The notes under the pieces are model-generated. The model was not told where the DNA came from. It worked only from the letters and a program-made list of their open reading frames with translations, and did not search any database. From contig CADBGE010000001.1 of NCBI GenBank assembly GCA_902794075.1, positions 140,603 through 204,602 of the forward strand: DNA of 64,000 nt. The letters run 5' to 3'. This document shows, piece after piece, positions 1 through 60,345 of this stretch; position 1 is the first letter of the stretch, and each line of letters opens with the position of its first letter. Both the position numbers and the translations under genes were made by a program. This stretch comes from an uncultured Erysipelotrichaceae bacterium. Lineage in GTDB: Bacteria > Bacillota_I > Bacilli_A > RF39 > UBA660.

Positions 1-59
1 TATTCATTCAAAGAATGAAGATCTTTCATGTGTGAAATATATGTTGTTAATCTTTTCAT
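1..59 (-). CDS. N-terminal fragment of another MKxL-leader paralog (gene runs off the left edge)
   Basis: The ATG at 59..57 overlaps the stop of the 56..595 gene (ATGA). It translates MKRLTTYISHMKDLHSLNE, nearly identical to the start of the neighbouring DUF285-type protein. Confidence 0.5.
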   Translation of the reverse strand, partial: MKRLTTYISHMKDLHSLNE

Positions 60-595
60 CCTTTGTACCAACTCGGTATATTTGTTATTCCTGAATTATC
101 AAACATCCACGCCATTCCTTTAACATTTGAAACATCCCATTTTGATAAGTCTCCCACTGATTCTAATTTCTCAGAATTATCAAACATACTATACATATTT
201 TTAACACTTGAGACATTCCAATTTGATAAGTCACCAACAAATTTTAATTTTTTACATTTATGAAACATAAAACTCATATCTTTAACATTTGAAACATCCC
301 AATTCGATATATCAATGTATTCAAATTTTGTTATTTCAAATATTCCTATAGTTCCATCATAAAATGAATCAATATTACTTATATTAACATCATTAAAGTC
401 AATTGGTTTCTGTTCTGTTCCAGGTCCTAACTTATCATATCTATCTTCTATGATCTTTCTTAATTCTTTAAATGATTTTGGTGTATAAGTATATGGATCA
501 TTATAATTTTTATTTATAACTAACTTTTCATTCAAATATTCATTCAAAGAATAAAGATCTTTCATATGTGAAATATATGTCGTTAAACTTTTCAT
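56..595 (-). CDS. BspA/DUF285-type leucine-rich-repeat protein with CTS-like leader
   Basis: ORF track gives 56..607; I prefer the ATG at 595 (MKSLTTYISHM...). It carries about 24-aa repeats such as WDVSNVKDMSFMFxxCKKLKFVGDLSNWNVS, typical of DUF285/BspA-like LRRs. Confidence 0.75.
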   Translation of the reverse strand: MKSLTTYISHMKDLYSLNEYLNEKLVINKNYNDPYTYTPKSFKELRKIIEDRYDKLGPGTEQKPIDFNDVNISNIDSFYDGTIGIFEITKFEYIDISNWDVSNVKDMSFMFHKCKKLKFVGDLSNWNVSSVKNMYSMFDNSEKLESVGDLSKWDVSNVKGMAWMFDNSGITNIPSWYKG

Positions 596-1128
596 TCTTT
601 GTACCAATCGGGTATATTTTTTATTCCAGACTTTTTAAACATATTATACATATTTTTACATTCTGAAACATTCCATTTAGATAAATTTCCAACTGATTTT
701 AAATTATAACAGCTGTTAAACATCAAACTCATATCTTCAACATTTGAAACATCCCAATTAGATAAATCACCAACTGATTTTAAATTATAACATTCATTAA
801 ACAATTTATACATATCTTTAACCTTTGACACATTCCAATCTGATACGTCAATGTATTCAAAATCTGTTAAATCAAATATTCCTTCATTTATATTTGCATT
901 ATAAAATGAATTAATATTACTTATATCAACATCATTAAAGTCAATAGGATTCTGTTTTGTTCCAGGTCCCTGTTCTTCATATCGTTGTTCTATGATCTTT
1001 ACTAACTCTTTAAATGATTTTGGAGCACAAGTATATGGATCATTATAATCTTTGCTGATGACAAGTTTTTCGGATAATGAAATCAAAAATGATTTATCAG
1101 ATTTTATGTAATATGTTAATGACTTCAT
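592..1128 (-). CDS. BspA/DUF285-type leucine-rich-repeat protein with extended CTS-like leader
   Basis: Starts MKSLTYYIKSDKSFLISLSEKLVISKDY. It has the same NDPYT..PKSFKEL..GPGT..PIDFNDV module and WNVSKVKDMYKLF / WDVSNVEDMSLMF repeats as its neighbour. Its stop overlaps the next start (ATGA). Confidence 0.75.
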   Translation of the reverse strand: MKSLTYYIKSDKSFLISLSEKLVISKDYNDPYTCAPKSFKELVKIIEQRYEEQGPGTKQNPIDFNDVDISNINSFYNANINEGIFDLTDFEYIDVSDWNVSKVKDMYKLFNECYNLKSVGDLSNWDVSNVEDMSLMFNSCYNLKSVGNLSKWNVSECKNMYNMFKKSGIKNIPDWYKE

Positions 1129-1135
1129 AAATATT

Positions 1136-1747
1136 TTATATGGATTCCATATATTTTTTTAAATTTTTATATTCGTCTGTTTTATATAATGTAAATGAAT
1201 AGTTGCCATCATAATTTGTTCGTCTAATATTTTTACATTTTGAAATGTCAAGACCGAACATATCTTTCATATCATCACTATGTATTTTAAATATAGAATA
1301 ATGATCTGCATATTCAGTTATTTCATTCTCCTCATATAAATCAATGATTTCTTCTATTTTTTTATTATCAAATTCGTCATAATTAAATAAGATACATAAC
1401 TCATTCGTACCTCCAGCGTTTTTATTATATTCATATAAGAATGACTGATCATCAGCAACTGTCATTGTACCATCGAAAGAATTGACGTTATTTACATTAT
1501 AAGTATAATTGATATTACACTTATAATTTGTAAATGATATAGATTGTACCTTTACCGTGTCTATTTTTCCATATCTTATCCAGCCATCATTATCTTTAAT
1601 GTCTTTATTATTATATGTACCATTATCAGCATGCCAATATAAAATAAATCTTACTAAAGTTTTATCTGGACTAAGATTAAAATTAACATCAACATAGTTC
1701 TTGTTAATCACAAGTTTTTCAGATATGTAGTTTCTTAATGACTTCAT
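1136..1747 (-). CDS. hypothetical protein with CTS-like leader (MKSLRNYISEKLVINKNY)
   Basis: Intact 203-aa ORF. It has a shared leader with an I-S-E site, and the promoter-like motif lies 22 nt upstream. Confidence 0.6.
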   Translation of the reverse strand: MKSLRNYISEKLVINKNYVDVNFNLSPDKTLVRFILYWHADNGTYNNKDIKDNDGWIRYGKIDTVKVQSISFTNYKCNINYTYNVNNVNSFDGTMTVADDQSFLYEYNKNAGGTNELCILFNYDEFDNKKIEEIIDLYEENEITEYADHYSIFKIHSDDMKDMFGLDISKCKNIRRTNYDGNYSFTLYKTDEYKNLKKYMESI

Positions 1748-1782: not shown

Positions 1783-1794
1783 AAAAATCATTTT

Positions 1795-3880: not shown

Positions 3881-3893
3881 TATAATTAAAAAT
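3881..3893 (-). promoter_or_regulatory. conserved intergenic motif, putative promoter of the tail tube gene
   Basis: tataattaaaaat lies directly after the sheath terminator hairpin, 34 nt upstream of the ATG at 3847. Confidence 0.4.
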
Positions 3894-3943: not shown

Positions 3944-6900
3944 TTAGTTTTCAGAAATAAATGATTTCATTTGTCCTGTTCTATACAGAGTTAATTCATG
4001 AACCATCTTACCGCAACCAAATCCGGGTTCAATATGAGTGCTTAATACAGCCATTTCATTATCAATGATTTCTGGAGTATTGTTAGACTCATCCATGATG
4101 TTTAGATAAGTCTGAATACCACCATTAGCCTTGATTAATGAGCAAACTTGGTTAGCTTTGTCAAGGATTGCGTTACGTGTTGTTGGATTATTGAATTCCC
4201 ACTGATAGCTTTGGAGAACCTTCTCAATCTCATCCTGTAAGTAGATAACCAACTCACGAACATTGATACGAGACAATGCACTAAGTGGTGTCTGTTTAGC
4301 AGTTTGGTTAGCATTGATGAATGTTCCAAATGTTGGACGATAAATCATACAGTTGAATCCAAATGGTTCAAGATCATATAATTCTTCACGTGTGAACTTA
4401 TAATCAGGACCAACAAGACCTGTTGCAGAAATATGACCATAATTAGGACCAGCAACAATGTAATATGGTTGACGACTCATGTACTTCTGGATGAATAAGT
4501 TAGATACTAAGCCAGCAGATGGAACAATTGTATCAACATAACCATCAGAGAACTTAAGTGGAGTATAGAATCCTATAAATGATGCGCCATTGTTTTCTGT
4601 TGGAAGTGAGAATACTTCGTTTGCAGGTTTCTTACGATTACGACCTTCAACAACATATTTAGAATTAAATACGTTCTTCTCATCAGTAAATGATGTGTAC
4701 GGACATTTAACAAATGTACGAATTGAAGGCAAGTTACCAATAGCGAACGCACTTTCTTTTTCTTTACATAGTAATGAAAGTTCAGATCTAAGTTCATTCT
4801 GTGGGAATGCCTCAAATGTATCAATGATATAACGGTAATCAATGTTAGCCTTATTCAAGAGACCTTTACGAAGACCGCTATAATCAGTTAATGCAGAAAG
4901 AATTTGTCTTTGCCATTGTAGTTTAGCCCACATATCTGTACCATTTGGACGAGCATTCTTATAAGTATAGCCTTCAAGATAGTGAGGAACCATCTCACCA
5001 ATTTCTTGGTTAAGAGCAGCATTTAAACGAATGATGAAATATTCTTTGGGTTCATTTTCATCAATGGTGAAATCAGTATCTTTCCAAGTGTAAGGATCAC
5101 CGGATTGTGTTTCATCGTTGCTAGCATCATATGACCATCCAATACCTTCACCAGTCATACCTTCAGAATTTGGATCGCAATTATATGGTGCGCCACTTAA
5201 TGTAATATAATGACACTTGAAGTTACCTTTTTCATCATATAATGTACCTTCTCCTGTTACATATACACAATCACAGTAGTAATCTTTATCAAGTTCATCA
5301 ATTACACGATCATCATTTCTATCAACGGTTTTATCATTTGCAAGAATACAATCACCAGGCTTAAGAATTAACTGAAGAGTAGTATTATATGCCTTATCTG
5401 TTACAAGAGCATTATATAATCCACCATTTATATTTAATGCAGATTCATATTCCCAATCGCCTACATTTATAAATGATATTGAAGATCCATATACAGATTC
5501 TTTTTCATTTCCAAAAGGAGTTGAAGAAGTAGATGTTAAAGAAACTGATTTAAAACCACAGATAAAGTTAGTGTCAATATCAGTATACTTATATTCAGTT
5601 GGAGCATCACCATCTGTTCTATTCTCAATACGACGAATTGTTGTAATGATTTTAGAAGGACCATAATATCCACCAGGATTTTTTACGTCTACAACTTCAT
5701 ATGGAGCAAATGATTTTTCACTTTCAGAACCATCATTATACCAGAATGTTCCACCCATTAGACCTTGTTTATATACATCATCCCAACTATCATTATATTT
5801 ATATTCTTCTATGGTAGAATCATAGAATAAAATGTGCCAATCATTTTCGGTGGCTAGGTTCTTATCTATTGAATAGTTTGTTACACCACAAGTCTTAAGA
5901 ACATAATCCAATCTATGTTCTTCACAAATGATAGTTACAGTATTTTCAGCATCACCAATCTGTCTCAATATTACATTGTAGTTATATGTCTTTGAAGTTT
6001 CAGTTCCTCCAGCATTGTCACCTGTTGGAGTTCCTTCAGTACCATCGCTTGCTGGCGTTTCTACATCACCTTCACCTGAAGTTTGTTCTACTTCTACCTG
6101 TTTAACGTCAGCAACATATAAAGATCCTGTTATTAATTGTGGATAAGATTCAAGTTTACCATTTATATTAAATTCTTTAAAGTTTTTAATAGAAGATGAG
6201 AACTCAATCTTATCTGCAATGACTGGAGCACTTAAGTTACCAAGTAGATTAGTTTTCGCAACACCTTGGAAGATAGTCTCAAGACTTAACGGATTATTGA
6301 ACGATGGTTCATTTACTCCATTTGTTTTGTCGTGATTTTCAAATGCTGAACTCTCAGGAATAACACCTTTACCGGATAAATCTATGATTCCTGCACCATC
6401 CTCATCAAGAAGATCAGTGTTGAAACTCATCATCATCTTATGTTCATCATTGTCACTATTAAATAATATATCAAGTGAACGATAATTTCCTTTCTTATCC
6501 TTGAAATATGGAATTAATGAACCAATCCAATGTCCAATAGCATTTGATGTAGAATCAGCATAAAGAGCATCAAGAGTATCAATAAGTTCTCCATAAGGAT
6601 TATGAAGATCAGTACGAAGTTTTAACTTATAACTTTTTCCATCAGCATCAAGTTCATCCGTTGTTACAAAATACTTCTTTAGTGTATCTGATGCAAGAGC
6701 TTGAGCAGCATTAAAACGTCCTTTAAATACATAAATTTCTGCAAAGAAATCACTCATTAAACGATGTTCAAATCCATGAAGATATTCAGGCATCTCTTCA
6801 TACTTATCAGAATACCAATCGCTGACTGTTAAATTAAATTCAGAAATTTTTGAGCCAGATGGTTTACGAATAAAATACGAAGCTGAACTATTATAAGTGT

Positions 6901-7384
6901 CAGTTATTGACAAATTAATATAGTTGTTAAGAGTTATGCCATCAACTGAGTTCAGATCATTCAGTTGTTCAGCAGAAATCTCCCAAAATCTTGTCTTATC
7001 AAAGATGTCCTCAATATTGATCTTAACGTCATCAATAGGATCGTAATTAACATTGAATTCTGTGTTAATTGTTGACGCACCTACAGTCTCACCACTAAAC
7101 TTCTTAAGGTTAAGACAGATAATAGGACTAACAGCCAACATTTGTAAGCACATACGGTGGAAGAAAATACCACGTTTTTCAAGTTTCTTTGAAATGTTTC
7201 CAAAATATTGAACGAATTCCTGCGGATCCTTTACATAAACTGGACAGTTAAACGGACCAACTTCTGAATATCCAACAACAAGACGAAGTGTCTCAGGCTC
7301 ATTGTTAAGCATAGTTGATTTGTCAAAAACTACGCGGTAAACACCAGCAGCCTTAAATTGTTGTAAATGTACAGGTATTGCCAT
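3944..7384 (-). CDS. contractile tail sheath protein (very large, 1146 aa)
   Basis: The N-terminus AAGVYRVVFDKS...VVGYSEVGPFNCPVYV and the C-terminus (LSRINVRELVIYLQDEIEKVL..WEFNNPTTRNAILDKANQVCSLIKANGGI) match conserved sheath termini. Gene order is sheath then tube. Confidence 0.85.
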   Translation of the reverse strand: MAIPVHLQQFKAAGVYRVVFDKSTMLNNEPETLRLVVGYSEVGPFNCPVYVKDPQEFVQYFGNISKKLEKRGIFFHRMCLQMLAVSPIICLNLKKFSGETVGASTINTEFNVNYDPIDDVKINIEDIFDKTRFWEISAEQLNDLNSVDGITLNNYINLSITDTYNSSASYFIRKPSGSKISEFNLTVSDWYSDKYEEMPEYLHGFEHRLMSDFFAEIYVFKGRFNAAQALASDTLKKYFVTTDELDADGKSYKLKLRTDLHNPYGELIDTLDALYADSTSNAIGHWIGSLIPYFKDKKGNYRSLDILFNSDNDEHKMMMSFNTDLLDEDGAGIIDLSGKGVIPESSAFENHDKTNGVNEPSFNNPLSLETIFQGVAKTNLLGNLSAPVIADKIEFSSSIKNFKEFNINGKLESYPQLITGSLYVADVKQVEVEQTSGEGDVETPASDGTEGTPTGDNAGGTETSKTYNYNVILRQIGDAENTVTIICEEHRLDYVLKTCGVTNYSIDKNLATENDWHILFYDSTIEEYKYNDSWDDVYKQGLMGGTFWYNDGSESEKSFAPYEVVDVKNPGGYYGPSKIITTIRRIENRTDGDAPTEYKYTDIDTNFICGFKSVSLTSTSSTPFGNEKESVYGSSISFINVGDWEYESALNINGGLYNALVTDKAYNTTLQLILKPGDCILANDKTVDRNDDRVIDELDKDYYCDCVYVTGEGTLYDEKGNFKCHYITLSGAPYNCDPNSEGMTGEGIGWSYDASNDETQSGDPYTWKDTDFTIDENEPKEYFIIRLNAALNQEIGEMVPHYLEGYTYKNARPNGTDMWAKLQWQRQILSALTDYSGLRKGLLNKANIDYRYIIDTFEAFPQNELRSELSLLCKEKESAFAIGNLPSIRTFVKCPYTSFTDEKNVFNSKYVVEGRNRKKPANEVFSLPTENNGASFIGFYTPLKFSDGYVDTIVPSAGLVSNLFIQKYMSRQPYYIVAGPNYGHISATGLVGPDYKFTREELYDLEPFGFNCMIYRPTFGTFINANQTAKQTPLSALSRINVRELVIYLQDEIEKVLQSYQWEFNNPTTRNAILDKANQVCSLIKANGGIQTYLNIMDESNNTPEIIDNEMAVLSTHIEPGFGCGKMVHELTLYRTGQMKSFISEN

Positions 7385-8500: not shown

Positions 8501-8516
8501 ATATATAATTAAAAAT
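8501..8516 (-). promoter_or_regulatory. conserved intergenic motif, putative promoter
   Basis: atatataattaaaaat lies immediately after terminator 8511..8548 and 19 nt upstream of the ATG at 8482. Confidence 0.45.
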
Positions 8517-9047: not shown

Positions 9048-9467
9048 TTATATTTTGTAACCTTCTTTAGAAAGCAATTTTTTTATTTTTTCAGTAAGAG
9101 CATCAAACAATTCATCAATATTTCTAAAATTATATTGTTTTAAGACTATCCATTTCGACGGCATTCCATTAACTGTTCGTCTAATTATTATTTCATTTTC
9201 GTCTGGTGTTTTTACATATAAAGTAAATACACTGTTTACATATGACGAATCGGACTTTAGATTATTATCATTAAGTTTTATTTTTCCTAATTTAATGTTA
9301 CCTGTTTTTAATTCGTGTATATCATCAAATATATTATCCCAATTATCTTTACATTTATTTAAAAAATAACTATCAGGATCTTCATAATCTTTGCTAATGA
9401 TAAGTTTTTCGGATAATGAAATTAAAGATGATTTATCAGATTTTATGTAATGTGTTAATGACTTCAT
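9048..9467 (-). CDS. hypothetical protein with extended CTS-like leader
   Basis: Starts MKSLTHYIKSDKSSLISLSEKLIISKDYEDP. It lies between the two peptidoglycan hydrolase genes. Confidence 0.6.
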   Translation of the reverse strand: MKSLTHYIKSDKSSLISLSEKLIISKDYEDPDSYFLNKCKDNWDNIFDDIHELKTGNIKLGKIKLNDNNLKSDSSYVNSVFTLYVKTPDENEIIIRRTVNGMPSKWIVLKQYNFRNIDELFDALTEKIKKLLSKEGYKI

Positions 9468-10344: not shown

Positions 10345-10512
10345 TCATTGCCTCTTAATGATTCTTCGTAGTCGGTTTTTCTTTTTCTTAAATATATTTG
10401 TTTTTGTTGGTATAGGATCTGAAGAAAGAGGCTCAACATTTCCCATACCAACAGTATTCATTGGTGAAGCAAAATCACCACATTCTTTTAAGTATTCTAT
10501 TAATGACTTCAT
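10345..10512 (-). CDS. small unannotated ORF (55 aa) with CTS-like leader
   Basis: Below the ORF-track size cut-off. It translates MKSLIEYLKECGDFASPMNTVGMGNVEPLSSDPIPTKTNIFKKKKNRLRRIIKRQ. The promoter-like motif sits at 10582..10595, and the ORF shares A[ST]P[ML]NT[VI]GMGN with the capsid protein. Confidence 0.45.
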   Translation of the reverse strand: MKSLIEYLKECGDFASPMNTVGMGNVEPLSSDPIPTKTNIFKKKKNRLRRIIKRQ

Positions 10513-10604: not shown

Positions 10605-11195
10605 TCATATAATGTTAATATCTGGATAAACTTCAAGTGTATTCAAAATAATGTCCTGATTTACATTTGCCACACCATTTAGAAATACATAAATATTTTC
10701 ATTATTTAATTCTTTGCTCATGTCTACAAGTGTATCGTTAACCATTACATCACCAATCATACCGCATACAACAATATCATCAGTAAATACTTTGCAATTG
10801 TCCGTTGCTGTCTTGATGATAAATTTTCCGTCAATGAAACTTGAATATTTTGATGCTGATGACTCTAAAAAATCGGAAACTTCTCCATGATTTAGTTCAA
10901 CACACTTTACATCACACGAATTAAGAATGTTAATCAGTCTTTCATCAATCTTGTTACCGTAGGTATCAGCAACACAATTTTTATCATATGATCCACCATG
11001 TCCCTTGAATGTACAATAATCATTAGGGTGATTACTCTTTGCAAGAATCACTCTATTAATGAGATCTTTATTTTCTTTAACAAATTTACAAATATTATTT
11101 AAAGCATTTTCACTTGATGGCACATACAGTGAACCATCTTTCTTTGTAATGTCATTTTGACAATCAATAACAAATAATGTAAATTCCTTTGTCAT
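10605..11195 (-). CDS. isochorismatase / nicotinamidase (PncA-like) family hydrolase, divergent
   Basis: FVIDCQNDITKKDGSLYVP matches the VDxQNDF motif, and NHPNDYCTF...NCVADTYGNKI matches the DWHP..H.SF...HCV..T.GA region. The position of the catalytic Cys (GLATDYCV) reads GMIGDVMV. Confidence 0.55.
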   Translation of the reverse strand: MTKEFTLFVIDCQNDITKKDGSLYVPSSENALNNICKFVKENKDLINRVILAKSNHPNDYCTFKGHGGSYDKNCVADTYGNKIDERLINILNSCDVKCVELNHGEVSDFLESSASKYSSFIDGKFIIKTATDNCKVFTDDIVVCGMIGDVMVNDTLVDMSKELNNENIYVFLNGVANVNQDIILNTLEVYPDINII

Positions 11196-11207
11196 ATCTT
11201 TAAAAAA

Positions 11208-11558
11208 TTAATCAGTATAAAAATCAACAGGTTCACCATTCCAAAGTTTCGCAAGACATCCATTAAGCTTAACTCTATTCCTTGAAATTCGCCCCTTATA
11301 AATCTTTCCATTCTCTGGATCAGAATCTTCAACAGGAACACATGTACCGTTCTGTCCATATCCATCATCTGAAACAGTTTTTTGATTTAACCTAATTGTA
11401 AAAATCATTGAAGGTGTTCGACGGACTACTTTATAAAAATGTGGAATCTTTGCAGTATATTGGAATGATGCATCAAGAATGTCTCCAACCATAAAATCTT
11501 CAGCATTATATGGATCTCTCTCAACATCCTTAAAATCTTTATTAATCTTAATAGCCAT
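11208..11558 (-). CDS. hypothetical protein
   Basis: Intact 116-aa ORF in the operon between the transaldolase and the hydrolase. No motif recognised. Confidence 0.45.
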   Translation of the reverse strand: MAIKINKDFKDVERDPYNAEDFMVGDILDASFQYTAKIPHFYKVVRRTPSMIFTIRLNQKTVSDDGYGQNGTCVPVEDSDPENGKIYKGRISRNRVKLNGCLAKLWNGEPVDFYTD

Positions 11559-11640
11559 AATTTTTATTTTTTGATTTATAATTACGATTATAATATATAA
11601 AACATACTACAAAAATTAAAACTATATTTGTTAAAGATTA

Positions 11641-12279
11641 TTAATTATAGTCCTTCTTGAATTTTTCTATACCAATATCTGTAAGTGGATGTGCAATCAT
11701 TTGTTTGATTACTTTGTATGGAACTGTAATTACATCTGCTCCTGCAAGAGCACATTCTGTAACATGAAGAGGATTGCGTATACTTGCAGCAATAATGTTA
11801 GTAGAAATAGAATTCTGCTTAAAAATTTTAGATATAGATTTTATAAGATCCACACCAACTATATCAATGTCATCAAGTCGTCCAACAAATGGACTTACAT
11901 AACGTGCTCCAGATAATGCGCACAATAATGCTTGATTTGCTGAAAAGATAAGTGTCATATTAACTCCAATTCCTTCTCTTGTTAATGTCTTGCATGCCTT
12001 AAGACCTTCCTCAGTCATTGGAATTTTTATAATAATATTCGGGTGAATTTGTGCAATTACATGAGCTTCATTAATTATATCAATAGCTTTAGTTAGATTT
12101 GGATTTACCTCAGCACTAATTGGACCATTAACAATTTCTGCAATTCGTTTTACTGTTTCCTTAAAATCCTTTCCTTCCTTAGTAATTAATGATGGATTAG
12201 TTGTCACACCACTAATAATGCCCATATTATTTATTTCGCTAATTTCATTAATGTTTGCTGTGTCTAAAAATAATTCCAT
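11641..12279 (-). CDS. tal: transaldolase / fructose-6-phosphate aldolase family (TalC/Fsa type)
   Basis: 212 aa. [33 protein letters not shown] (Schiff-base Lys) and [13 protein letters not shown] are the short-type transaldolase signatures. Confidence 0.9.
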
Positions 12280-29677: not shown

Positions 29678-29866
29678 TTAATGTTTTACTTTTTCTAAAG
29701 CCTCCCTAACTTTAGCACAATAATCTTTTACATCCTGAGGAACACCAGGCTTATTGTCATATTTTCTTAATACATTTAAAATAGCATCATGCACATTCAT
29801 CCATGACATACGTGCTTCATCTATTTCATTGTTTTCGTTATTTATAAAATTTATTAAACTTTTCAT
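29678..29866 (-). CDS. hypothetical small protein with CTS-like leader (MKSLINFINNENNEIDEA)
   Basis: 62-aa ORF in an operon of leader-bearing genes. Confidence 0.5.
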   Translation of the reverse strand: MKSLINFINNENNEIDEARMSWMNVHDAILNVLRKYDNKPGVPQDVKDYCAKVREALEKVKH

Positions 29867-45400: not shown

Positions 45401-45669
45401 TTTATTCTACACCAAATTGTTTGACCCCATTTGACTGCATCACCAATTTCTGCCTGCCAAATCTTTGCAGTAACACGGTCAGTTGTACGTTCATCATCAC
45501 CAGTTATATCATCTTCTGAATCATACGATACTACATCAACAATCATATCATTCCCGTAATATATCATAAATACACGTGTATCTGCACCTGACTGCTTAAT
45601 AAGTTCTGATACATCAATATCGTTCTTAATATGATTATATTCTGTAATATACTTTACTAAGTTCTTCAT
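45397..45669 (-). CDS. hypothetical small protein with CTS-like leader (MKNLVKYITEY)
   Basis: 90-aa ORF with an ATGA overlap to the downstream LRR gene. Confidence 0.5.
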   Translation of the reverse strand: MKNLVKYITEYNHIKNDIDVSELIKQSGADTRVFMIYYGNDMIVDVVSYDSEDDITGDDERTTDRVTAKIWQAEIGDAVKWGQTIWCRIK

Positions 45670-45717: not shown

Positions 45718-46122
45718 TCAGAACACAATCTTTGATTCACGTTCAACATTCTTTAAGCTGTCTGAACTATGCATTGCGTTTTTCATCTCTGACTTACCCC
45801 ATACATCTCTGGCCTTGTCCTTGAGTTTCTTCATTTCTTTAATAGGGTCTCCACAGTCTTTATGACAAGTGCAGCATATGCAATCATCGCTAGACATATA
45901 GTTGCACAGGTCCTTATAAAAGTCTTTGTCCTTGTGCATTTTATAAAGTTCTTCTGCTTGTTCATGTGTTAGTTTTAATTTCTTTTTCTGAACGATCTGC
46001 CAATCGTTGTTCTTTAGCATATCAAGCCATTGCTGTTCATATTTTAAGAATTCTGGCTTAAGAATTACAAATGCGTTAAGTTCTGCATTTTGCTCTTTTA
46101 TGAATTGGGTAAATGTTTTCAT
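45718..46122 (-). CDS. ndk: nucleoside diphosphate kinase-like protein with CTS-like leader
   Basis: FVILKPE, KLKLTHEQAEELYKMHKDKDFYKDLCNYMSS and NAMHSSDSLKNVERESKIVF are collinear with E. coli Ndk IIKPN, [31 protein letters not shown] and [20 protein letters not shown]. Starts MKTFTQFIKEQ. Confidence 0.75.
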   Translation of the reverse strand: MKTFTQFIKEQNAELNAFVILKPEFLKYEQQWLDMLKNNDWQIVQKKKLKLTHEQAEELYKMHKDKDFYKDLCNYMSSDDCICCTCHKDCGDPIKEMKKLKDKARDVWGKSEMKNAMHSSDSLKNVERESKIVF

Positions 46123-51742: not shown

Positions 51743-51865
51743 ATTTCTTTAAACAGAAAACAAAATATTTCTTTAAACAGAAAATTCATTTTTTTTAAAA
51801 TGATATTTCTTTTGTTGTATTGAAAAGAAAACAAAATATTTCTTTAAACAGAAAATTCATTTTTT
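51738..51865. repeat. 40-nt perfect direct repeat (51755..51794, 51826..51865) plus a third 23-nt partial copy
   Basis: agaaaacaaaatatttctttaaacagaaaattcatttttt occurs twice. The second copy spans the stop codon of the 171-aa gene. Confidence 0.8.
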
Positions 51866-52372
51866 CTGTATTACGATATTACTTGAACTATAATTTGTAT
51901 CTTGAAAATTATCACCCCAAATTATAATGTAATAGTTATAAGTATTTAATACATATACACTGTTATGTCCATCATTTTTATAATTATAATAACATAGCCA
52001 TTTATCACTTATATGTTGTTCACAATATTCAGACATTTTTAAAAACAATTTATAATAAAAAGAATTGACATTAACAAATCCTATGGCCATAAATATTTTG
52101 TTTTTACTATTAAATAAGTTTTCTTCTTTTATTACATTTAAAACAGCTAATCTCTGCTTTCTTTCATTAAATATGTCTTCTATTATATTTTCAATATGTT
52201 TTTCTTTTTTTATTGTAGCGTCTTTGTTTGTTAAAATATATTCAATGTCATCTTCAAATTTATCACAAAAATCATCACTTAAATTTTTATAATCTTTGTT
52301 GATGACAAGTTTTTCAGATAATGAAATCAAAGATGATTTATTATCTTTTATATGTTTAACAAGTGATTTCAT
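51857..52372 (-). CDS. hypothetical protein with extended CTS-like leader (paralog group)
   Basis: Starts MKSLVKHIKDNKSSLISLSEKLVINKDYKN and ends ..NIVIQKK, like its neighbour (..HIVIQYK). Confidence 0.6.
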   Translation of the reverse strand: MKSLVKHIKDNKSSLISLSEKLVINKDYKNLSDDFCDKFEDDIEYILTNKDATIKKEKHIENIIEDIFNERKQRLAVLNVIKEENLFNSKNKIFMAIGFVNVNSFYYKLFLKMSEYCEQHISDKWLCYYNYKNDGHNSVYVLNTYNYYIIIWGDNFQDTNYSSSNIVIQKK

Positions 52373-52429
52373 AATTTAATTACTTATATTGAATTATTAC
52401 ATAATTTAATTATTTATATTGAATTACTA
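52370..52429. repeat. 30-nt tandem duplication at the junction of two paralogous genes
   Basis: cataatttaattacttatattgaattatta / cataatttaattatttatattgaattacta. Confidence 0.75.
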
Positions 52430-52931
52430 TATGACCATCGGAAAATTTAGAATAATGGATATCTGTATTTCCATCTAAAAAAATTAATGCTTTATTACTA
52501 TTTATTACATATGTACATGTAAAGCCCTCCTTACATATTAATATATCATCTGCTGCATAAAGTTCATCTTTATTGTCTTTTATATATTCTATGAATTTTT
52601 CCCAAACCTTACATGCTTCTGTATTTGCAGGATTAGAAACACTATGCCAAGCAACACCTTTATAACACGGATTATTTTTTGTTCCATATCTGTTAAATAC
52701 ATAAATAATGTCACGTCTTAATCCATCCGACCATCTTGACTTTGGATACAAACATAAATCTATACTGTCTAATTCCTTAAAGAAATTATCTTTAAATAAT
52801 GAGTCTATGTCTTCTTTAAAGTTATTATAAAAATCTAAATCATACTTATAATCTTTATTTATGACAAGTTTTTCAGATAATGAAATCAAAGATGATTTAT
52901 TATTTTTTATGTGTTCTGTTAATGTTTTCAT
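52410..52931 (-). CDS. hypothetical protein with extended CTS-like leader (paralog group)
   Basis: Starts MKTLTEHIKNNKSSLISLSEKLVINKDYKY. A tandem 30-nt duplication lies at the junction with the next gene. Confidence 0.6.
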   Translation of the reverse strand: MKTLTEHIKNNKSSLISLSEKLVINKDYKYDLDFYNNFKEDIDSLFKDNFFKELDSIDLCLYPKSRWSDGLRRDIIYVFNRYGTKNNPCYKGVAWHSVSNPANTEACKVWEKFIEYIKDNKDELYAADDILICKEGFTCTYVINSNKALIFLDGNTDIHYSKFSDGHIVIQYK

Positions 52932-53479
52932 ATTGCGTTTTCTTTAATCTTTTCAAATGCATAATTTATTAATCTGAAATCTTCATCCGTTATACTATAG
53001 CACTCATCATATTTAAGATAAGATTTTAATGATCGTATTGAAGCACCATTACTATTAAAGAAACCTTCAAATCTTATATTGTTTTTGTTTGTTACATTTA
53101 TCCAATACTGTTCAAGATCATTATTTGCATCTGCTCCAAGTATTAAGAAAACACCAAATGTTCCCTTTGAATGAACAATCAGTGTTGGCTTAAAACGATT
53201 CTTTTCTGGGTTATATCGACGAATAGCTGTAGATGATCCTATCTTTTTAGCCTTATCAAGTATTGGTGAAATAATAGTATCAAAGAATACGTCACAATCT
53301 TTTGATATATAAATTTCTTGACCACTGTCAACAAGGCCAGTTCCTTTACCAACTGGTTCCATCGTCCAATCATAATTATTAATAATTTTGTTAACTATTG
53401 GATCATATTTACTACTAGGGTTAGTATAATCTTTGTTGATGATTAATTTTTCTGATATGTATTCAATTAATGATTTCAT
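52928..53479 (-). CDS. hypothetical protein with CTS-like leader
   Basis: Starts MKSLIEYISEKLIINKDYTNP. It has an ATGA overlap with the downstream paralog. Confidence 0.6.
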   Translation of the reverse strand: MKSLIEYISEKLIINKDYTNPSSKYDPIVNKIINNYDWTMEPVGKGTGLVDSGQEIYISKDCDVFFDTIISPILDKAKKIGSSTAIRRYNPEKNRFKPTLIVHSKGTFGVFLILGADANNDLEQYWINVTNKNNIRFEGFFNSNGASIRSLKSYLKYDECYSITDEDFRLINYAFEKIKENAI

Positions 53480-54422: not shown

Positions 54423-55463
54423 ATGATTGATGACGAATATATTATAAGATATTTTTATGGGAAGAAATCATTTATTTCAAGTAGGCTTAATAAAATTCCA
54501 TCTGATATTGAAGAATATTTAAAAAATAGATATGCAAATTTTAAGTCATTTAAAGAAACAATTTATAGGATAAAAAATAAACTTGATGAAGAACCAAAAT
54601 GCCTGACATGTGGCAAAAATCTAGAATTCCATAAAAGAGGTATGTTTTACCGAAAATTTTGCAACGTCAAATGTTCAAATCTTAATAAAGAAAAAATACA
54701 AAAAGAAAAAATAACAAAATTAAATAAATACAATAATCCCAATTATAATAACAGATTGAAATGTAACGAAACAAAAAATATAAGATATGGAAATACATGG
54801 AAATATCATTTAAGAAATTATTTTAACAATTTATCTGATTTAGAAAAACATGAATTTTATGAAAAAATAAAAAATTCAGTTCAATTAAGATATAATGTAA
54901 ATAATGTATCACAATTACAAGAAATAAAAGATAAAAAGAAACAAACATGTTTAATAAAATATGGAATTACAACAAATTTACAAGCTGAAAAAACAAAAAA
55001 TAAGTTAAAAAGTTTAAGGAAAGATCATAATTGGTTACACATGGTTAATGAAAAAATAAATGAAACTAAACGCAGAAACGGCACGTTCAATACATCAAGA
55101 CCAGAAGAATACATCTATGAAAGACTTTGTGAGATATTTACAACAGATAATGTAATTAGACAACATCATACAGATGAATACCCATTTGATTGTGACTTTT
55201 ATATAATACCACTTAACTTGTACATTGAATATCAAGGTATGTGGACACACAATGATCATCCATTTGATGAAACTAATGAAAATGATTTAAAAATTGTGGA
55301 ATCATGGAGTCAAAAAAATTCTACATTTTACAATGGAGCAATAGACGTTTGGACCAAAAAAGATGTTTTAAAAAGAAATACAGCAAAGAAAAATAATTTA
55401 AATTGGATTGAATTCTTTAATTTATCACAATTTAATGATTGGGTTAATCAGCTAATTAAATAA
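54423..55463 (+). CDS. Zn-ribbon + [KR]YG repeats + Vsr/DUF559-like PD-(D/E)XK endonuclease (homing-endonuclease-like)
   Basis: CLTCGKN...CNVKCSN, RYGNTW / IKYGITTN repeats, RNGTFNTS, CDFYIIPLNLYIEYQGMWTH and KRNTAKKNNLNWIEF are collinear with the N-terminal 430 aa of the 12331..14742 protein. Confidence 0.55.
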   Translation: MIDDEYIIRYFYGKKSFISSRLNKIPSDIEEYLKNRYANFKSFKETIYRIKNKLDEEPKCLTCGKNLEFHKRGMFYRKFCNVKCSNLNKEKIQKEKITKLNKYNNPNYNNRLKCNETKNIRYGNTWKYHLRNYFNNLSDLEKHEFYEKIKNSVQLRYNVNNVSQLQEIKDKKKQTCLIKYGITTNLQAEKTKNKLKSLRKDHNWLHMVNEKINETKRRNGTFNTSRPEEYIYERLCEIFTTDNVIRQHHTDEYPFDCDFYIIPLNLYIEYQGMWTHNDHPFDETNENDLKIVESWSQKNSTFYNGAIDVWTKKDVLKRNTAKKNNLNWIEFFNLSQFNDWVNQLIK

Positions 55464-55875: not shown

Positions 55876-56847
55876 TCATTTCTTTGTATGTCTTTCTTCG
55901 TAAATACCCCATAAGTAATTAATTACATTAGATATTATTTCATTATCAAACTTTTGATGTGTGTTATAATATTCAACTATCATATTATGAACATTCTCAT
56001 CATATGCGTTCTTAAATGATGGCATTTTATTTGCATTAAAGTATTTTTCAAACTTAATTCTACGGTGAAGCACTTTGCGTTTGTCAATACTTATTGGAAT
56101 GTTATATTTATAATTATCTCCAAACATTGTCTTATAACGATCCCACATGTTTTCAAATGCCGCAGAAGTATCATTCTTATTGTCTCTGAAGAAATTGTCA
56201 TTGCATAATTCATATGACATATAGTTTATTGCCATACAGTTAATTCCACTTATAAGACAGTCAAGAAGAAGTGAAATGTCTTCAGTAGAAAAGAATGTAA
56301 TATCATAATGAATATTGTTTTCAACTATTTGTTTTATGTCAAGCAAAATGAACTGCCCTGCATTAAGTGACTTATTTTTAACAATTTCATTAGGTTTTTT
56401 AAAACCAATATAAAATGGTAAAGTAAATGAAACATGTCCTGCATTATTCTCTTCAGCAAGTTTTACTGCTTCTTTAAATAAAATATCAATATCCGTTCTA
56501 TATGATCTATATGAATTTGATGTCTCACGTTTAGTTTCTTCAGATATATACTTAGCACTATATTTAACATCATCATCAATCATGAACATATAGTCATAAT
56601 TATTATTTATGCAAAAATCTAATATTGCTTGCCGTTTGCTTGGAAGATTATTAGCATCAACATATATTACACTAACATTATCTGATTTATATGATTCATA
56701 TTCTAACTTTGTTTCATCATTGTTTGAAACAAATATATACTTATCATATTGATGTTGATCATCATTGATATTAATATTATGTAAATTAGATATAAGTTCT
56801 TTATATCTATGTCCATAGCTAGGAACACATATTGCAATTCGTTTCAT
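55876..56847 (-). CDS. GT-A-fold glycosyltransferase-like protein (paralog 2)
   Basis: RIAICVPSYGHRY (Rossmann start), NNYDYMFMIDDDV (DxD) and NKSLNAGQFI...FSTEDIS. A clear paralog of the upstream gene. Confidence 0.5.
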   Translation of the reverse strand: MKRIAICVPSYGHRYKELISNLHNININDDQHQYDKYIFVSNNDETKLEYESYKSDNVSVIYVDANNLPSKRQAILDFCINNNYDYMFMIDDDVKYSAKYISEETKRETSNSYRSYRTDIDILFKEAVKLAEENNAGHVSFTLPFYIGFKKPNEIVKNKSLNAGQFILLDIKQIVENNIHYDITFFSTEDISLLLDCLISGINCMAINYMSYELCNDNFFRDNKNDTSAAFENMWDRYKTMFGDNYKYNIPISIDKRKVLHRRIKFEKYFNANKMPSFKNAYDENVHNMIVEYYNTHQKFDNEIISNVINYLWGIYEERHTKK

Positions 56848-56851: not shown

Positions 56852-57751
56852 TTAATTCTTTTTAAGTATTTCTGTTTTTAAATAATTTAATAAGTTTTCA
56901 TATGATTCTCCAGCATCAAACATATTAAATAATGTTCGATATTTGTCTTCAACGTTTTTCTTATATGGTGGTAGTTTGTCAATATTAAAGTATTTATTAA
57001 ATTTTATTACTGGACGTATTATACCTTGAGCATCAATGGTTAAAGGACAATTGTACATCTTTGCGAAAAGAATATGTATCATGCTTCTATCAATAGTATC
57101 AGAAAAAATAACTGACTTGTTTGATGAATTCTCTATATACGTATAATCAGCTACGCATATGCAAGTTAGTCCTTTCATTAATATGTCCATACAAAATTTT
57201 ACGTCTTCTGGAAAAAGAACATCAGTGTAAATAGAAATATTATTGTTTTTTATGTCATTTACATTATAGCATATAAACTGACCACAGTTTAACGATTTAT
57301 TGACTTTTACATTTCCAGGATGAGAAAAACCTAAAAAGGCATTTCTTATTAAACTTGAAAATGTTGCATTATATTCAATTGTTCTATTATATAATACGTC
57401 TATAGCCTCTTTAATTGGAACTCGTATCCTTTTATATGTTTTTGATGTTGGACGTTTAGTTTCCGATGTGATCTTATATCCGTATGATTTCACATCGTCC
57501 TCAATTATAAAAGCATAATCATAATTATTTTCAATAGTCCAATCAACTATAAACTTACGTTTTTCAGCAATATTCTTTGCTGATGTGTTAATTATATCAA
57601 TTCCTAATGATTTATAGTCATTTATTCTATCATCATCATTTGAAATAAATATTTTAATATCATATTCAGTTATTTCTTTTAATGCATCAAATAATTCAAC
57701 ATATCTAAATCCATAACTTGGAATGCAAATAACTGTTTTATTGTTCTTCAT
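56852..57751 (-). CDS. GT-A-fold glycosyltransferase-like protein (paralog 1)
   Basis: TVICIPSYGFRY, NNYDYAFIIEDDV and NKSLNCGQFI...LFPEDVK. Its start overlaps the 3' end of the upstream methyltransferase gene by 14 nt. Confidence 0.5.
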   Translation of the reverse strand: MKNNKTVICIPSYGFRYVELFDALKEITEYDIKIFISNDDDRINDYKSLGIDIINTSAKNIAEKRKFIVDWTIENNYDYAFIIEDDVKSYGYKITSETKRPTSKTYKRIRVPIKEAIDVLYNRTIEYNATFSSLIRNAFLGFSHPGNVKVNKSLNCGQFICYNVNDIKNNNISIYTDVLFPEDVKFCMDILMKGLTCICVADYTYIENSSNKSVIFSDTIDRSMIHILFAKMYNCPLTIDAQGIIRPVIKFNKYFNIDKLPPYKKNVEDKYRTLFNMFDAGESYENLLNYLKTEILKKN

Positions 57752-59027
57752 ACGTCTGTTTTATGTTATTAGCGTACAATATGTTTGTACTTCGTTTGTT
57801 GAACTTGTCTGGATTGATTATAATGTCAACAGCATTTCTTACTACCCATTCAGCAGTCTTAACAGGAACATTTTGTCCAATTAAGTTAAAGTCTCTCTGT
57901 TCATGACCGCATAATGAAAAATCATAAGGCATACCCATTAATGCAAGTGCCTCTTCTATCGTTATGAATCTATCTTCTGATGGGTGAATTATGTGAGGTA
58001 TAGTTTTAAATATAATTGCTGGAGTGTATTCATTTCTTGGAAGAATTGGAGAATCACAGTAATAACCTAGTCCAATAGACACTTTATATTTAACATGGTC
58101 AACCGCCTTCTTAAATCCAATAATGTCTTTTTCATTTGTTACATTTTTATCAACATACGATTTCCAATCTTCATAAAGATCTCTATTAATTATATTGCAA
58201 ATTCCTGTTTTATTCTCATCAAATGTTTTTCTCCAATTGTCACCCCACATGTCCATAAAATATTTCAGCATTAATCTAGAAAATGCATATCCATTAATCA
58301 TTGTCTGAGATGTAATGTGCTTATCAATTTCATTAAAATAATCTAATGTTTCAATATGCTTATTTTCGAACATTATTTCTGGACATGAGTTTGTTCTCCC
58401 TTTCACAAACATAACAAATGTTCTTGGACGTCGTTGACAATTATTATGTAATTGTGTATCGGTCTTTATATATATAATAGAATAACCTGTTCGTTCAGCA
58501 AGATCATTAAAATATGTTCTCATTGTAGTGCCAGTATTAGTATACAACTGAGGAGCATTTTCCATTATAAATATAGTAGGTTTAATAACGGACAACGCAT
58601 ATTTTGTAATGAACTTCATATTACAGTTTTTTGAATTCTTTGTGTCAGATGGCGCAATAGTTGCACTTGATAAACCAGAGCATACTGGAACAGCAACAAC
58701 TAAATCTATATTGTCAAAAGTTAAACTTACTTCATCATTATTCTCATCTTCTAATATTACACTATCTATAATGTCATCCTGAAACATTTTACGGTTTCTA
58801 AATACATAATAATTTGGCATACGATTGTGCTGCTTAAGATAATTTGTAAGATACCATTCATTAGCACAAGAAATTACTTCTTCGGTTGCTTTATTCTTTT
58901 TCTCAGCAGTTAACCCAGGAAATGAAATTATGCATTCTGCTGGATGTCCAATTATATTTTCTGTTCCTAGATACATTCCACCAGTTAATGGTTGTATTGC
59001 TATCCATTTTATGTTTTCTTTTGTCAT
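57738..59027 (-). CDS. DNA (cytosine-5)-methyltransferase-like protein
   Basis: Motif I-like is IQPLTGGMYLG, motif IV is VPVCSGLS (Pro-Cys), motif VI is IMENAPQL (ENV), motif VIII is QRRPRTFV (QxRxR) and motif X is GQNVPV (GNxVP). Confidence 0.7.
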   Translation of the reverse strand: MTKENIKWIAIQPLTGGMYLGTENIIGHPAECIISFPGLTAEKKNKATEEVISCANEWYLTNYLKQHNRMPNYYVFRNRKMFQDDIIDSVILEDENNDEVSLTFDNIDLVVAVPVCSGLSSATIAPSDTKNSKNCNMKFITKYALSVIKPTIFIMENAPQLYTNTGTTMRTYFNDLAERTGYSIIYIKTDTQLHNNCQRRPRTFVMFVKGRTNSCPEIMFENKHIETLDYFNEIDKHITSQTMINGYAFSRLMLKYFMDMWGDNWRKTFDENKTGICNIINRDLYEDWKSYVDKNVTNEKDIIGFKKAVDHVKYKVSIGLGYYCDSPILPRNEYTPAIIFKTIPHIIHPSEDRFITIEEALALMGMPYDFSLCGHEQRDFNLIGQNVPVKTAEWVVRNAVDIIINPDKFNKRSTNILYANNIKQTYEEQ

Positions 59028-59044
59028 ATATATTATGTATATTT

Positions 59045-59836
59045 TTAAGCTTTTCTAATAATAAATTCTTTAGTGTCTAATTCATATGCTTTACAGTTAT
59101 CGAGCATCTTGTTGTTCATTACTTCAATAGCATCACCATATCCGATACTTCTGTCAGGTTTATAAAATGCCTGAAGAGTATGTCCAAACACTTGCTTAAT
59201 CTGCATAATCTGAAGAGCTGTTTCAGAAATGTCTAACTCCGGATCTTTCAACATTTCTTGATGCCACATTGTGTCTGAAGCATCTGCCCAAATACATGAC
59301 GCATACTTATCTAATCCACCTCTATCTGAAGAAACCATAAACAAATACTGAAGTCCCTTATCAGTGTTAAGCAAATTGTTCAATGAAAATGCAAGATCTT
59401 CAAGTGACGTTAACTTATATTGTTCTGTAAATACTGTCATAATCCATCCGGGTGTGCATCCTGCATGAGTGAAGAGAACATCATCAGCGACATCAGCAAT
59501 CTTGAAGAGCTCTTTATATTCTTCAAACCGCTGACGGATGTCGTTACAATATTGATTTGAATGACGTGAATGATACCATGTGAATGACTTATACTTCTCA
59601 CTAAAATATGGCATATCATGATTGCCAAGAAGAAGTGTCACCTTATCCTTATGTGCATCAGCAAATGCTAATATATTCTCAAAGTTCTCAAGTGCTTCAG
59701 AAACAGTGATATTCTCAAAATCATACGGATCCATATAGTCACCTAAGAAAATGATCTTGTCATAATCTTCTATATGCTTACACGGTTCTTCCCAAAACTT
59801 TCTACCGTGAATGTCGGGCAGTACTAATATCTTCAT
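59045..59836 (-). CDS. calcineurin-like metallophosphoesterase
   Basis: ILVLPDIHGR, IIFLGDYMDP, LLGNHD and a downstream GHT form the canonical DxH / GDxxD / GNH(D/E) series. Confidence 0.85.
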   Translation of the reverse strand: MKILVLPDIHGRKFWEEPCKHIEDYDKIIFLGDYMDPYDFENITVSEALENFENILAFADAHKDKVTLLLGNHDMPYFSEKYKSFTWYHSRHSNQYCNDIRQRFEEYKELFKIADVADDVLFTHAGCTPGWIMTVFTEQYKLTSLEDLAFSLNNLLNTDKGLQYLFMVSSDRGGLDKYASCIWADASDTMWHQEMLKDPELDISETALQIMQIKQVFGHTLQAFYKPDRSIGYGDAIEVMNNKMLDNCKAYELDTKEFIIRKA

Positions 59837-60345
59837 CTTTCTTCAACGGTTAATAAATAATCTTCAATATAATCCTTTGGTAACATATATTCTGTTTTAT
59901 TTCTATCTTGTTGTGGGGTAAAACCCATGACAGAAATTAATTTAGGAATAAGAACAATCCAATCGTTTATAATTTTTTTCTTTTGTTCTTCTGATACTTC
60001 AATATTTTCAGTAATAAATTTATCATCAAATAGGAATTCAATATTTTCATATTTATTGAATTCTAATTTTTTGATAATGACCTCTCTTACAAGTGTTGTC
60101 TTATCGTAACCTGTTGTTACAGCAGCATGAATTTTTGTTATATATGATTTTACTTCATTACACCAATGGTTCTTATTAATATTAGCAAAATCATACAATA
60201 CACAATATCTAACAAGACACCAATGCTGAAATAATGTTATAGAAATATTATCAATGTCTTCTCCTAATTGAGATCGCTTTTTTGCCATCTCAAATATTTT
60301 TGTATTTTCAAGTGTTCTTATTAAATATTCTTTCAAAGATGTCAT
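59833..60345 (-). CDS. hypothetical protein, weak CTS-like leader (MTSLKEYLIRTLE)
   Basis: 170-aa ORF with an ATGA overlap to the phosphoesterase gene. It is helical and distantly DUF29-like in pattern (unverified). Confidence 0.4.
   Translation of the reverse strand: MTSLKEYLIRTLENTKIFEMAKKRSQLGEDIDNISITLFQHWCLVRYCVLYDFANINKNHWCNEVKSYITKIHAAVTTGYDKTTLVREVIIKKLEFNKYENIEFLFDDKFITENIEVSEEQKKKIINDWIVLIPKLISVMGFTPQQDRNKTEYMLPKDYIEDYLLTVEER

Follow-up and report, generated by a model that had tools for sequence, protein, structure and literature searches.

Unrelated genes of an uncultured gut megaphage share an N-terminal leader resembling the T4 capsid targeting sequence

Why should some 20 genes, most of them coding for proteins with nothing else in common, begin with nearly the same ten residues? 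The question is raised by a stretch of 64,000 nucleotides of contig CADBGE010000001.1 (positions 140,603 to 204,602 of the forward strand; assembly GCA_902794075.1), here called the window, which belongs to an uncultured T4-like gut megaphage of about 400 kb. The window has 29% GC, and nearly all of its genes lie on the minus strand; gene statistics given below refer to a non-overlapping set of 64 window genes, whose proteome comprises 19,921 residues. The answer that we consider probable on balance, by analogy with phage T4, is that the shared N-terminus is a signal for targeting to, and processing in, the prohead core, of the same type as the T4 capsid targeting sequence (CTS), and that in this clade the signal has been greatly expanded and has become bipartite.

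The leader and its carriers

The first-pass annotation, made from the letters of the window and its open reading frames, had listed 21 minus-strand gene starts as sharing a leader of the form M-K-[ST]-[LF]-x-x-[YF]-[IL]-x-E or a close variant of it. All 21 translate as claimed, the gene at 59 being cut by the window edge with 19 residues visible, and the leader is shared by most of them, those at 25397, 28961, 34292 and 60345 being weak variants. An unlisted gene for an AAA_5-type ATPase (23004..24260, minus strand) carries a similar leader variant, MNLQEYVQMIEE. A loose pattern, MK[STN][LF]xx[YFKH][ILM], opens 17 of the 64 genes, and the strict pattern MK[ST][LF]..[YF][IL].E opens seven (starts 1747, 10512, 19308, 30540, 45400, 46122 and 53479), against composition-based expectations per gene of about 1e-4 and 1e-6, respectively. 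The binomial P is about 1e-28 to 1e-54, and is still about 1e-28 or lower when the actual frequency of Lys2 is used. In a six-frame translation of the window, the motif is nearly confined to these gene starts. The statement that nearly every leader contains an [IL]-x-E site also stands, as such a site ends at residues 8-24 in 19 of the 20 complete leader genes, compared with 11 of the 44 other genes.

Conservation of this kind could in principle reside in the RNA. Ser3 is encoded by AGT in five genes and by TCA in eight, a split that had been pointed out at first pass, and alternative codons are also used at Leu4, Tyr7, Ile8 and Glu10. Because Ser3 uses both AGT and TCA and other leader codons vary, conservation acts on the peptide. 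An effect on mRNA or on translation initiation, mediated by A/T-rich unstructured 5' coding ends in a host without Shine-Dalgarno sites, would draw on the fact that MK starts are common at 29% GC (Lys2 occurs in 27 of the 64 genes). Nevertheless, conservation tracks the amino-acid class at positions 4, 7, 8 and 10, and the capsid, sheath and tube genes do without the motif, so that this explanation appears highly improbable; in its translation-initiation form it is effectively refuted by the codon data, since AGT and TCA are not synonymously connected and the codons for Leu, Tyr, Ile and Glu vary. A Sec or lipoprotein signal peptide is ruled out: the longest hydrophobic run within the first 30 residues of the leaders is five, where a core of about ten or more is needed, and there is no lipobox Cys. 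The leader is moderately amphipathic.

The protein bodies behind the leader had been described as widely different, and Pfam bears this out for DUF285 (three genes), ferritin-like, HAD and NDK bodies, while the 'degenerate AAA domain' also mentioned was not found in any listed gene. Among the window leader genes, PF03382 (DUF285) scores above its gathering threshold only in 56..595, 592..1128 and 44759..45400, and when bodies stripped of residues 1-30 were compared by BLASTP, the same three genes (starts 595, 1128 and 45400) were the only ones that matched one another. The NDK, HAD and ferritin domains begin at residues 17-25, past the leader. In AlphaFold2 models of two carriers, the leader is likewise predicted to lie outside the fold. 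The body of the NDK-like protein has a predicted local distance difference test score (pLDDT) above 90, and its residues 1-10 form a separate helix with a pLDDT of 55; in the product of gene 19308, an 18-residue leader helix (pLDDT 45-55) is followed by a linker and a confident body. Across both models, body pLDDT is about 85-95. A Foldseek search of the gene 19308 model against the PDB returned nothing at E<=0.001.

About half of the window leaders continue beyond the decapeptide as E-[KR]-L-x-I-N-K-[DN]-[YF], hereafter the EKLxINKDY module, and in some of these bipartite leaders an insert of 10-13 residues stands immediately before the Glu of the module. The carriers, all on the minus strand, are spread over the window in several groups. 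At its low end, a leader gene truncated at the window edge, of which the 5' part remains (1..59, beginning MKRLTTYISHMKDLHSLNE), is followed by two genes with DUF285 bodies of leucine-rich repeat (LRR) type, 56..595 (179 amino acids (aa), extended leader MKSLTTYIS-HMKDLYSLNEYLN-EKLVINKNY) and 592..1128 (178 aa, extended leader MKSLTYYIK-SDKSFLISLS-EKLVISKDY), and by a gene without a known domain (1136..1747, 203 aa, bipartite leader MKSLRNYISEKLVINKNY). Further on are a 139-aa protein with an extended bipartite leader, whose gene (9048..9467) has the promoter-like motif ATTTTTAATTATA upstream, and a 55-aa protein starting MKSLIEYLKE (10345..10512). The gene at 18748..19308 (186 aa, MKSLINYIQERLIINKDY) lies within the head module, downstream of the promoter-like motif and flanked by the gene of an acidic protein of 205 aa and that of the protease; a wolf-gut contig has an orthologue at the corresponding place, and rumen relatives do not have the gene.

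In the middle of the window are a weak leader gene at 24921..25397 (158 aa, MKSLTQYLQT, with IYE at residue 18) and a degenerate one at 27390..28961 (523 aa, MISLKDYAF; MISLKDYAFKKLFINE). They are followed by 29089..29655 (188 aa, MKSLKEYMINE), 29678..29866 (62 aa, MKSLINFINNE...IDE), a HAD hydrolase of 215 aa whose domain starts at residue 22 (29893..30540, MKSLVQYILE) and which has a leader-bearing orthologue in L028, and a degenerate variant on a protein of 1251 aa (30537..34292, MNLSEYIKIN). A further group consists of a ferritin-like protein with its domain from residue 25 (44085..44729, 214 aa, MKTFTQKINE), a DUF285 LRR protein with the bipartite leader MKSLKTYIDERLIINKSF (44759..45400, 213 aa), a 90-aa protein (45397..45669, MKNLVKYITE) and the NDK-like protein, whose fold starts at residue 17 (45718..46122, 134 aa, MKTFTQFIKE). 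Towards the high end, two genes with extended leaders, 51857..52372 (171 aa, MKSLVKHIKD-NKSSLISLS-EKLVINKDY) and 52410..52931 (173 aa), precede one with the bipartite leader MKSLIEYISEKLIINKDY (52928..53479, 183 aa), at a locus whose leader-gene content varies between relatives (L050), and the degenerate variant MTSLKEYLIR heads a 170-aa protein at 59833..60345.

Likeness to T4 packaging and the head genes of the window

In T4, suppressor genetics has assigned CTS residues 4 and 7 to targeting and residues 8 and 10 to processing (PMC9026906). The likeness of the leader to the CTS holds at exactly these places, as all four functional positions are among the constrained positions of the leader (1, 2, 4, 7, 8 and 10). 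The decapeptide MKTYQEFIAE had been attributed to three T4 internal proteins; in the T4 record it is found in IPII and IPIII, while IPI begins with the related MKTFKEFTST...ITE. Window gene 46122, which starts MKTFTQFIKE, is identical to it at 6 of 10 residues and in addition shows the exchanges Y/F and E/Q. In a six-frame scan of 154 of the 169 kb of T4, the strict motif heads only IPII, IPIII and gp61.1, and it can thus be taken as a specific mark of packaged proteins in T4. The hypothetical protein gp61.1 (54 aa; NC_000866 18966..19130, minus strand) begins MKTFKEFIKE, a perfect CTS-type decapeptide, and may be an unrecognised packaged protein, since it is the only strict T4 match besides IPII and IPIII.

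The two systems are alike in several respects. Both have an N-terminal tag of about ten residues, M-K-T/S-aromatic/Leu-x-x-aromatic-I-x-E, with an [IL]-x-E processing site; in both, the tag sits on unrelated proteins of fast turnover that are gained and lost at their loci, as T4 internal-protein genes are; and both combine a Peptidase_S77 protease and a Gp23-family capsid protein with a tag that resembles sites in the scaffold, a putative one in the present phage. They differ in scale, with about 20 carriers in 64 kb here versus three or four in all of T4, and in cargo, which here includes recognisable enzymes and LRR proteins. Moreover, about half of the leaders here have the EKLxINKDY module after the putative cut, sometimes duplicated or separated by an insert; the scaffold here apparently consists of 12-residue repeats fused to the protease; and the phage is of a gut megaphage lineage of Bacteroidota type.

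The presence of a gp21-like protease at 16951..18624 (minus strand), noted at first pass, is well founded. The 557-aa protein is made up of a Peptidase_S77 domain (PF03420; aa 28-140, nucleotides 18205..18543; E=1.5e-10, above the gathering score), an acidic, Lys-rich linker and a repeat domain, and it matches the T4 gp21 structure 5JBL at E=0.002, with the GELEHP and SSRG segments that hold the catalytic His and Ser aligned. Its C-terminal repeat domain (about aa 296-445; 17290..17739, minus strand) contains 8-9 copies of (W/Y)-[IV]-x-[ED]-E-[FY], mostly at a spacing of 12 residues, and is kept in relatives L001-L006 with 6-11 copies. The W-[IV]-x-E-E-[FY] repeats mirror the Y-I-x-E-[KR]-L of the leader. 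For the common pattern [WYF][IV]xE[EKRD][FLYIMV], the window proteome has 15 matches where 1.9 would be expected, and of these seven fall in the protease repeats, five at leader residue 7 and three elsewhere. T4 offers a parallel: FIAE|A closes its CTS, and gp22, which starts MLKEQLIAEA, also has KIAEK and KIAEQ. Homology of the repeat domain to gp22 was not found. As there is no separate gp22-like gene between the protease and capsid genes, the repeat domain is taken as the scaffold, and we infer from its sequence that it may serve as a protease-fused, gp22-like scaffold that is both docking partner and cleavage target.

The major capsid protein (14917..16773, minus strand; 618 aa) was recognised by Pfam Gp23 (E=1e-31) and by BLASTP to T4 gp23 (7e-6). 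An invariant block near its N-terminus ends YAAIHEIHE|S (aa 38-43, nucleotides 16645..16662, minus strand) and is followed by a variable stretch; the corresponding residues in the distant relative L010 read VYE|G. The site IHEIHE|S is a candidate for an [IV]-x-E maturation site of the capsid protein, and only a candidate because the T4 gp23 cleavage site could not be mapped onto this protein: BLASTP aligns the C-terminal half only, and a PDB sequence search was empty. The capsid protein itself starts MFLTE, whose tetrapeptide FLTE is also that of the T4 gp23 cleavage site FLTE|A. At the position of T4 gp67/gp68, upstream of the protease here and in relatives, lies the gene for the 205-aa acidic protein (19305..19922, minus strand), with the promoter-like motif ahead of it. 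This motif, ATTTTTAATTATA, has eight exact copies, seven on the minus strand (3881-3893, 8504-8516, 9502-9514, 16907-16919, 19950-19962, 44007-44019 and 51730-51742) and one on the plus strand (37944-37956), and a degenerate form of it has 10 sites versus 0.5 expected. The genes that it precedes are those of the tube and the capsid protein, the one ahead of the protease gene, a neck-like gene, a leader gene and others, and it is a candidate late promoter of the phage, unlike the TATAAATA of T4.

A second link between leader proteins and the capsid is a short peptide. Residues 17-25 of the 55-aa leader protein, PMNTVGMGN (nucleotides 10438..10464, minus strand; SPMNTVGMGNVEP), resemble the N-arm of the capsid protein at aa 67-77, TPLNTIGMGNP (about 16543..16575; TPLNTIGMGNPWAP), and in relative L018 TPMNTTGMGNVSP follows the leader. 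The common peptide may be one that binds the capsid interior. It could also be placed in an account in which the leader is not cleaved at all and instead acts as an N-terminal anchor, fixing small variable domains such as DUF285/BspA-type LRRs to head fibres, whiskers or the capsid surface. Sharing of PMNTxGMGN with the capsid N-arm would suit such an anchor, as would the LRR binding domains in several bodies and the head or tail appendages of the distant relatives PTm1 and PAU (PMC7824862). It is nonetheless improbable, because a surface location would hardly suit NDK, HAD phosphatase and ferritin-like cargo, most bodies are mutually unrelated orphans with no known relatives, and the conserved [ILV]-x-E site and the match to the protease repeats point to the head interior.

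Other packaging systems resemble the leader less closely. The head propeptides of phiKZ, 201phi2-1 and SPN3US also occur in giant phages with dozens of packaged proteins and a gp21 homologue that cuts after Glu, and a role in targeting has been proposed for these N-terminal propeptides (PMC5694885). They differ from the present leaders in having the cleavage motif S/A/G-x-E, in being mostly longer than 100 residues and in lacking a decapeptide common across cargo, whereas the window-type tag has 10-28 residues and I, L or V three residues before the proposed cut. A propeptide of the phiKZ/SPN3US type is rejected for the leaders, which have I, L or V in 115 of 115 unique proteins and domains that begin at residues 17-25. 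In phage P1, the N-terminal 30 residues of DarB suffice to load a heterologous protein into the capsid for delivery (PMC9024508). The DarB sequence is unrelated, serves a single cargo, works within the stepwise assembly of Dar proteins and is not a leader common to many proteins. Polymorphic-toxin architectures, such as MuF-domain proteins in phage heads, combine a conserved N-terminal address with interchangeable bodies, as here; their trafficking modules are folded domains of at least 100 residues, compared with a peptide of 10-20 residues in the window.

The second module and the leader beyond the window

The bipartite form was followed in IMG/VR. The exact window-type DNA pattern, with Ser3 and I-N-K, had no match there. 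A looser degenerate DNA pattern for MKx[LI]xxYIxE[KR]Lx[LI]xK gave 80 matches in 43 IMG/VR stretches, corresponding to 72 distinct proteins, which are 29-348 aa long and in a few cases truncated where the locus ends, with up to 18 leader copies on one contig of 29.5 kb. A Pfam domain was found in only four of the 54 IMG/VR leader proteins tested, in each case DUF285, and PHROGs assigned the 54 to families without assigned function, apart from one match to a single-member endolysin family. The wider profile scan suggested in the first-pass annotation shows that the leader is not special to the window: a profile built from four window leaders and searched at E<=0.001 against 1.84 billion representative proteins found it at the head of at least 185 protein clusters, nearly all aligning at residue 1 and with diverse bodies. 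The eight clusters that were looked up have metagenome sources only. With a 20-aa consensus leader as query, tblastn against the phage collection found no match, the query being too short for a database of that size, and a homologue search with the first 45 residues of gene 53479 gave no candidates.

In the bipartite proteins, residue 3 before the Glu of E-K-L is I, L or V in 115 of 115 unique proteins, and variants with inserts of 1-13 residues recreate L-S-E or L-N-E before the module. Some forms are duplicated further. Among the profile matches, P0123, P0196, P0217, P0247 and P0122 carry an EKLVI(N/F)xxx unit in 2-4 tandem copies (e.g. MRTLNNYIQEKLAIFPSQVNEKLVIFPSQVNEKLVRFPSQVNEKLVINKSYK), of which only the last retains the NK[DN][YF] ending.

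The short form is conserved in homologues as well. Among 120 NDK-like homologues (58-99% identical), all but a few keep the leader pattern. Their 36 distinct in-register N-termini show an entropy near zero at positions 1, 2, 8 and 10, restrict position 3 to T/S, position 4 to L/F and position 7 to F/Y, and leave positions 5, 9 and 11-13 free. The pattern MKT[FY]xxFIxE is present in more than 120 IMG/VR stretches (loci L061-L140 were inspected; GC 23-44%) and heads a real gene in 73 of the 80 readable loci, five such genes lying within 14 kb in L130. Bodies behind it include NadR-like cytidylyltransferases, some of them kinase fusions, DUF6267 and DUF5661. DUF6267 is a family of T4-like cyanophages, and its member on a marine contig has the leader while the S-PM2 homologue lacks it; as members of one family occur with and without it, the leader is a modular add-on. 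Leader genes come and go at fixed loci among relatives.

These observations bear on the idea that the carriers form one fast-evolving paralogous family whose best-kept ancestral remnant is the leader. Tandem arrays and local turnover would be expected of such a family, the three DUF285 genes of the window are true paralogues, and the EKLxINKDY continuation suggests common descent for the bipartite subgroup. Common descent of all carriers is a different matter and must be considered very unlikely, as the decapeptide heads NDK, HAD, ferritin-like, DUF285, DUF6267 and cytidylyltransferase folds, with the Pfam domain starting after the leader where checked, the DUF6267 homologue of S-PM2 goes without it, and series of homologues keep the pattern though intervening residues vary freely.

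Proposed mechanism, phage context and meaning

If the leader is a signal of the CTS type, it could work as follows. Residues 1-10 (M-K-[ST]-[LF]-x-x-[YF]-I-x-E) would form a short amphipathic helix that docks cargo on the scaffolding core during prohead assembly, the likely docking partner being the tandem W-[IV]-x-E-E-[FY] repeats at the C-terminus of the gp21-type protease. The activated protease would cut after the Glu of [ILV]-x-E in scaffold repeats and leaders; the scaffold would be degraded and the cargo freed inside the head, where it would remain with the DNA and be deliverable at infection. The E-K-L-x-I-N-K-D-Y module would provide a further contact for docking or recognition, peculiar to this clade of phages. 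Tandem duplications and insertions inside the leader are to be expected in this scheme, as the leader would be removed. Packaging of the leader proteins, their docking, cleavage after Glu and injection are all argued here by analogy with T4. A bolder version is possible but should be regarded as tentative: the prevalent Jug-like gut and rumen megaphages of about 400 kb may load about 100 different proteins, including NDK, HAD phosphatase and ferritin/Dps-like proteins, by means of a bipartite tag, the first half of which would be a CTS code of the whole T4 superfamily, MK[TS]-phi-x-x-aromatic-I-x-E, docking by mimicry of the protease-fused 12-residue repeats.

Several points weigh against a packaging signal. 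The leader is carried by about 30% of the window genes, compared with about 1-2% in T4, and to our knowledge packaging of so many different proteins would be unprecedented. The benefit of packaging metabolic enzymes (NDK, HAD and ferritin-like proteins, and NadR-like proteins in marine contigs) is not evident, and the NadR-like cytidylyltransferases in particular sit less easily with an 'injected arsenal'. In the bipartite form, K11, L12, [IL]14 and K16, which lie past the proposed cut, are as conserved as the residues ahead of it, and a simple propeptide of T4 style does not account for this half; as T4 CTSs are without such conservation after the cut, the cut may lie elsewhere, or EKLxINKDY may act otherwise. 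Internal [IL]xE sites in the bodies of leader proteins are not significantly depleted (P=0.3). The hydrophobic residue three before the cut, together with that at position 12, could be explained by upkeep of an amphipathic helix alone. In addition, the leader family was not seen in the first 50 kb of PTm1, a distant cultured relative, whose annotation bears no proteomics labels.

Some of these points would be accommodated if the leader were a general tag that docks or localises proteins elsewhere than in the capsid interior, for example at an assembly factory, on a membrane patch, or on a chaperone or a protease that times their activation or degradation, the likeness of the leader to the T4 CTS being convergent or due to a shared type of helix. 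The tagging of about 30% of window genes, metabolic enzymes among them, the strong conservation of EKLxINKDY past the putative cut and the moderate amphipathicity of the leader all fit such a tag. On the other side, capsid targeting is the sole experimentally defined function of the motif, the constrained positions coincide with the functional positions in T4, the motif recurs in the protease-fused scaffold-like repeats and almost nowhere else, and the leader has no hydrophobic core (longest run 5). A non-capsid tag is therefore judged unlikely, although it deserves more weight than the other alternatives considered here, and prohead-core targeting of the T4 type is retained as the favoured explanation.

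As to the phage itself, 25 kb of the window had zero megablast matches among 50,697 phage records, and there is hence no close annotated relative. Identity of the capsid protein is about 33% with its counterparts in Tenacibaculum phages PTm1 and pT24, Sphingomonas phage PAU and Lak megaphages, and 47-67% with those on uncultured IMG/VR contigs, which reach 435 kb; a wolf-gut sample is the source of one close relative. The GC content, the T4-likeness and the presence of an NrdG-like gene are as in the 'Jug' gut megaphages of Bacteroides/Phocaeicola or in relatives of these from animal guts (PMC12880540), and the text of that paper does not mention the N-terminal motif. Scans for Rfam families and tRNAs found nothing in the window. 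Among its other genes are those for a tail sheath, a tail tube and a neck protein. The sheath protein (3944..7384, minus strand) has 1146 aa, about twice the usual size, and sheath profiles match its C-terminal ~320 residues only. Auxiliary metabolic genes without leaders lie among the structural genes (10605..12279, 34961..35893 and 39628..40668, minus strand) and code for an isochorismatase-like protein, a transaldolase (TAL_FSA), an NrdG-like radical SAM activase and a deoxynucleoside monophosphate (dNMP) kinase.

Two paralogues, 12331..14742 (minus strand) and 54423..55463 (plus strand), are 30% identical over about 400 aa and match DUF7487 and homing-endonuclease-like profiles, one of them being placed between the capsid and transaldolase genes. 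They are probably mobile endonuclease genes, consistent with the introns and inteins reported for Jug phages. By inspection of its sequence, a 75-aa open reading frame at 60350..60577 (minus strand) resembles translation initiation factor IF-1, which is a core gene of Jug phages (PMC12880540). Two further paralogues on the minus strand, 55876..56847, with a Pfam TAGT match, and 56852..57751, are TET-associated glycosyltransferases 34% identical to each other, and next to them lie genes for a C5 cytosine DNA methylase (57738..59027, same strand) and for a metallophosphatase (59045..59836); together they look like a DNA hypermodification module. In T4, injected IPI* protects modified DNA, and the DNA methylase and TET-associated glycosyltransferases of the window belong to the same kind of DNA modification.

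A CTS with diverse cargo is already known, and the T4 literature has suggested it as an evolutionary device. Not found described in the literature searched are the scale of its expansion, the bipartite form with a second module that can be duplicated, the match of the leader to protease-fused repeats, the enzymatic cargo, and the spread in prevalent gut megaphages and environmental viral contigs. Even in T4, the selection of proteins for the head core is still described as 'mysterious' (PMC9958956); with hundreds of natural tagged proteins and a candidate docking partner in the W[IV]xEE[FY] repeats, the recognition code can be put to the test. Should the tag not mark a protein for packaging, T4-like phages would still have a very widespread N-terminal address to be explained. 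If it does, the injected proteome of uncultured T4-like phages would be readable directly from sequence, and the tag would be usable for protein delivery into Bacteroides or other gut bacteria. From sequence only, one could then list which proteins are carried into Bacteroidota cells by uncultured gut megaphages, and anti-defence and takeover factors would probably be found among them.

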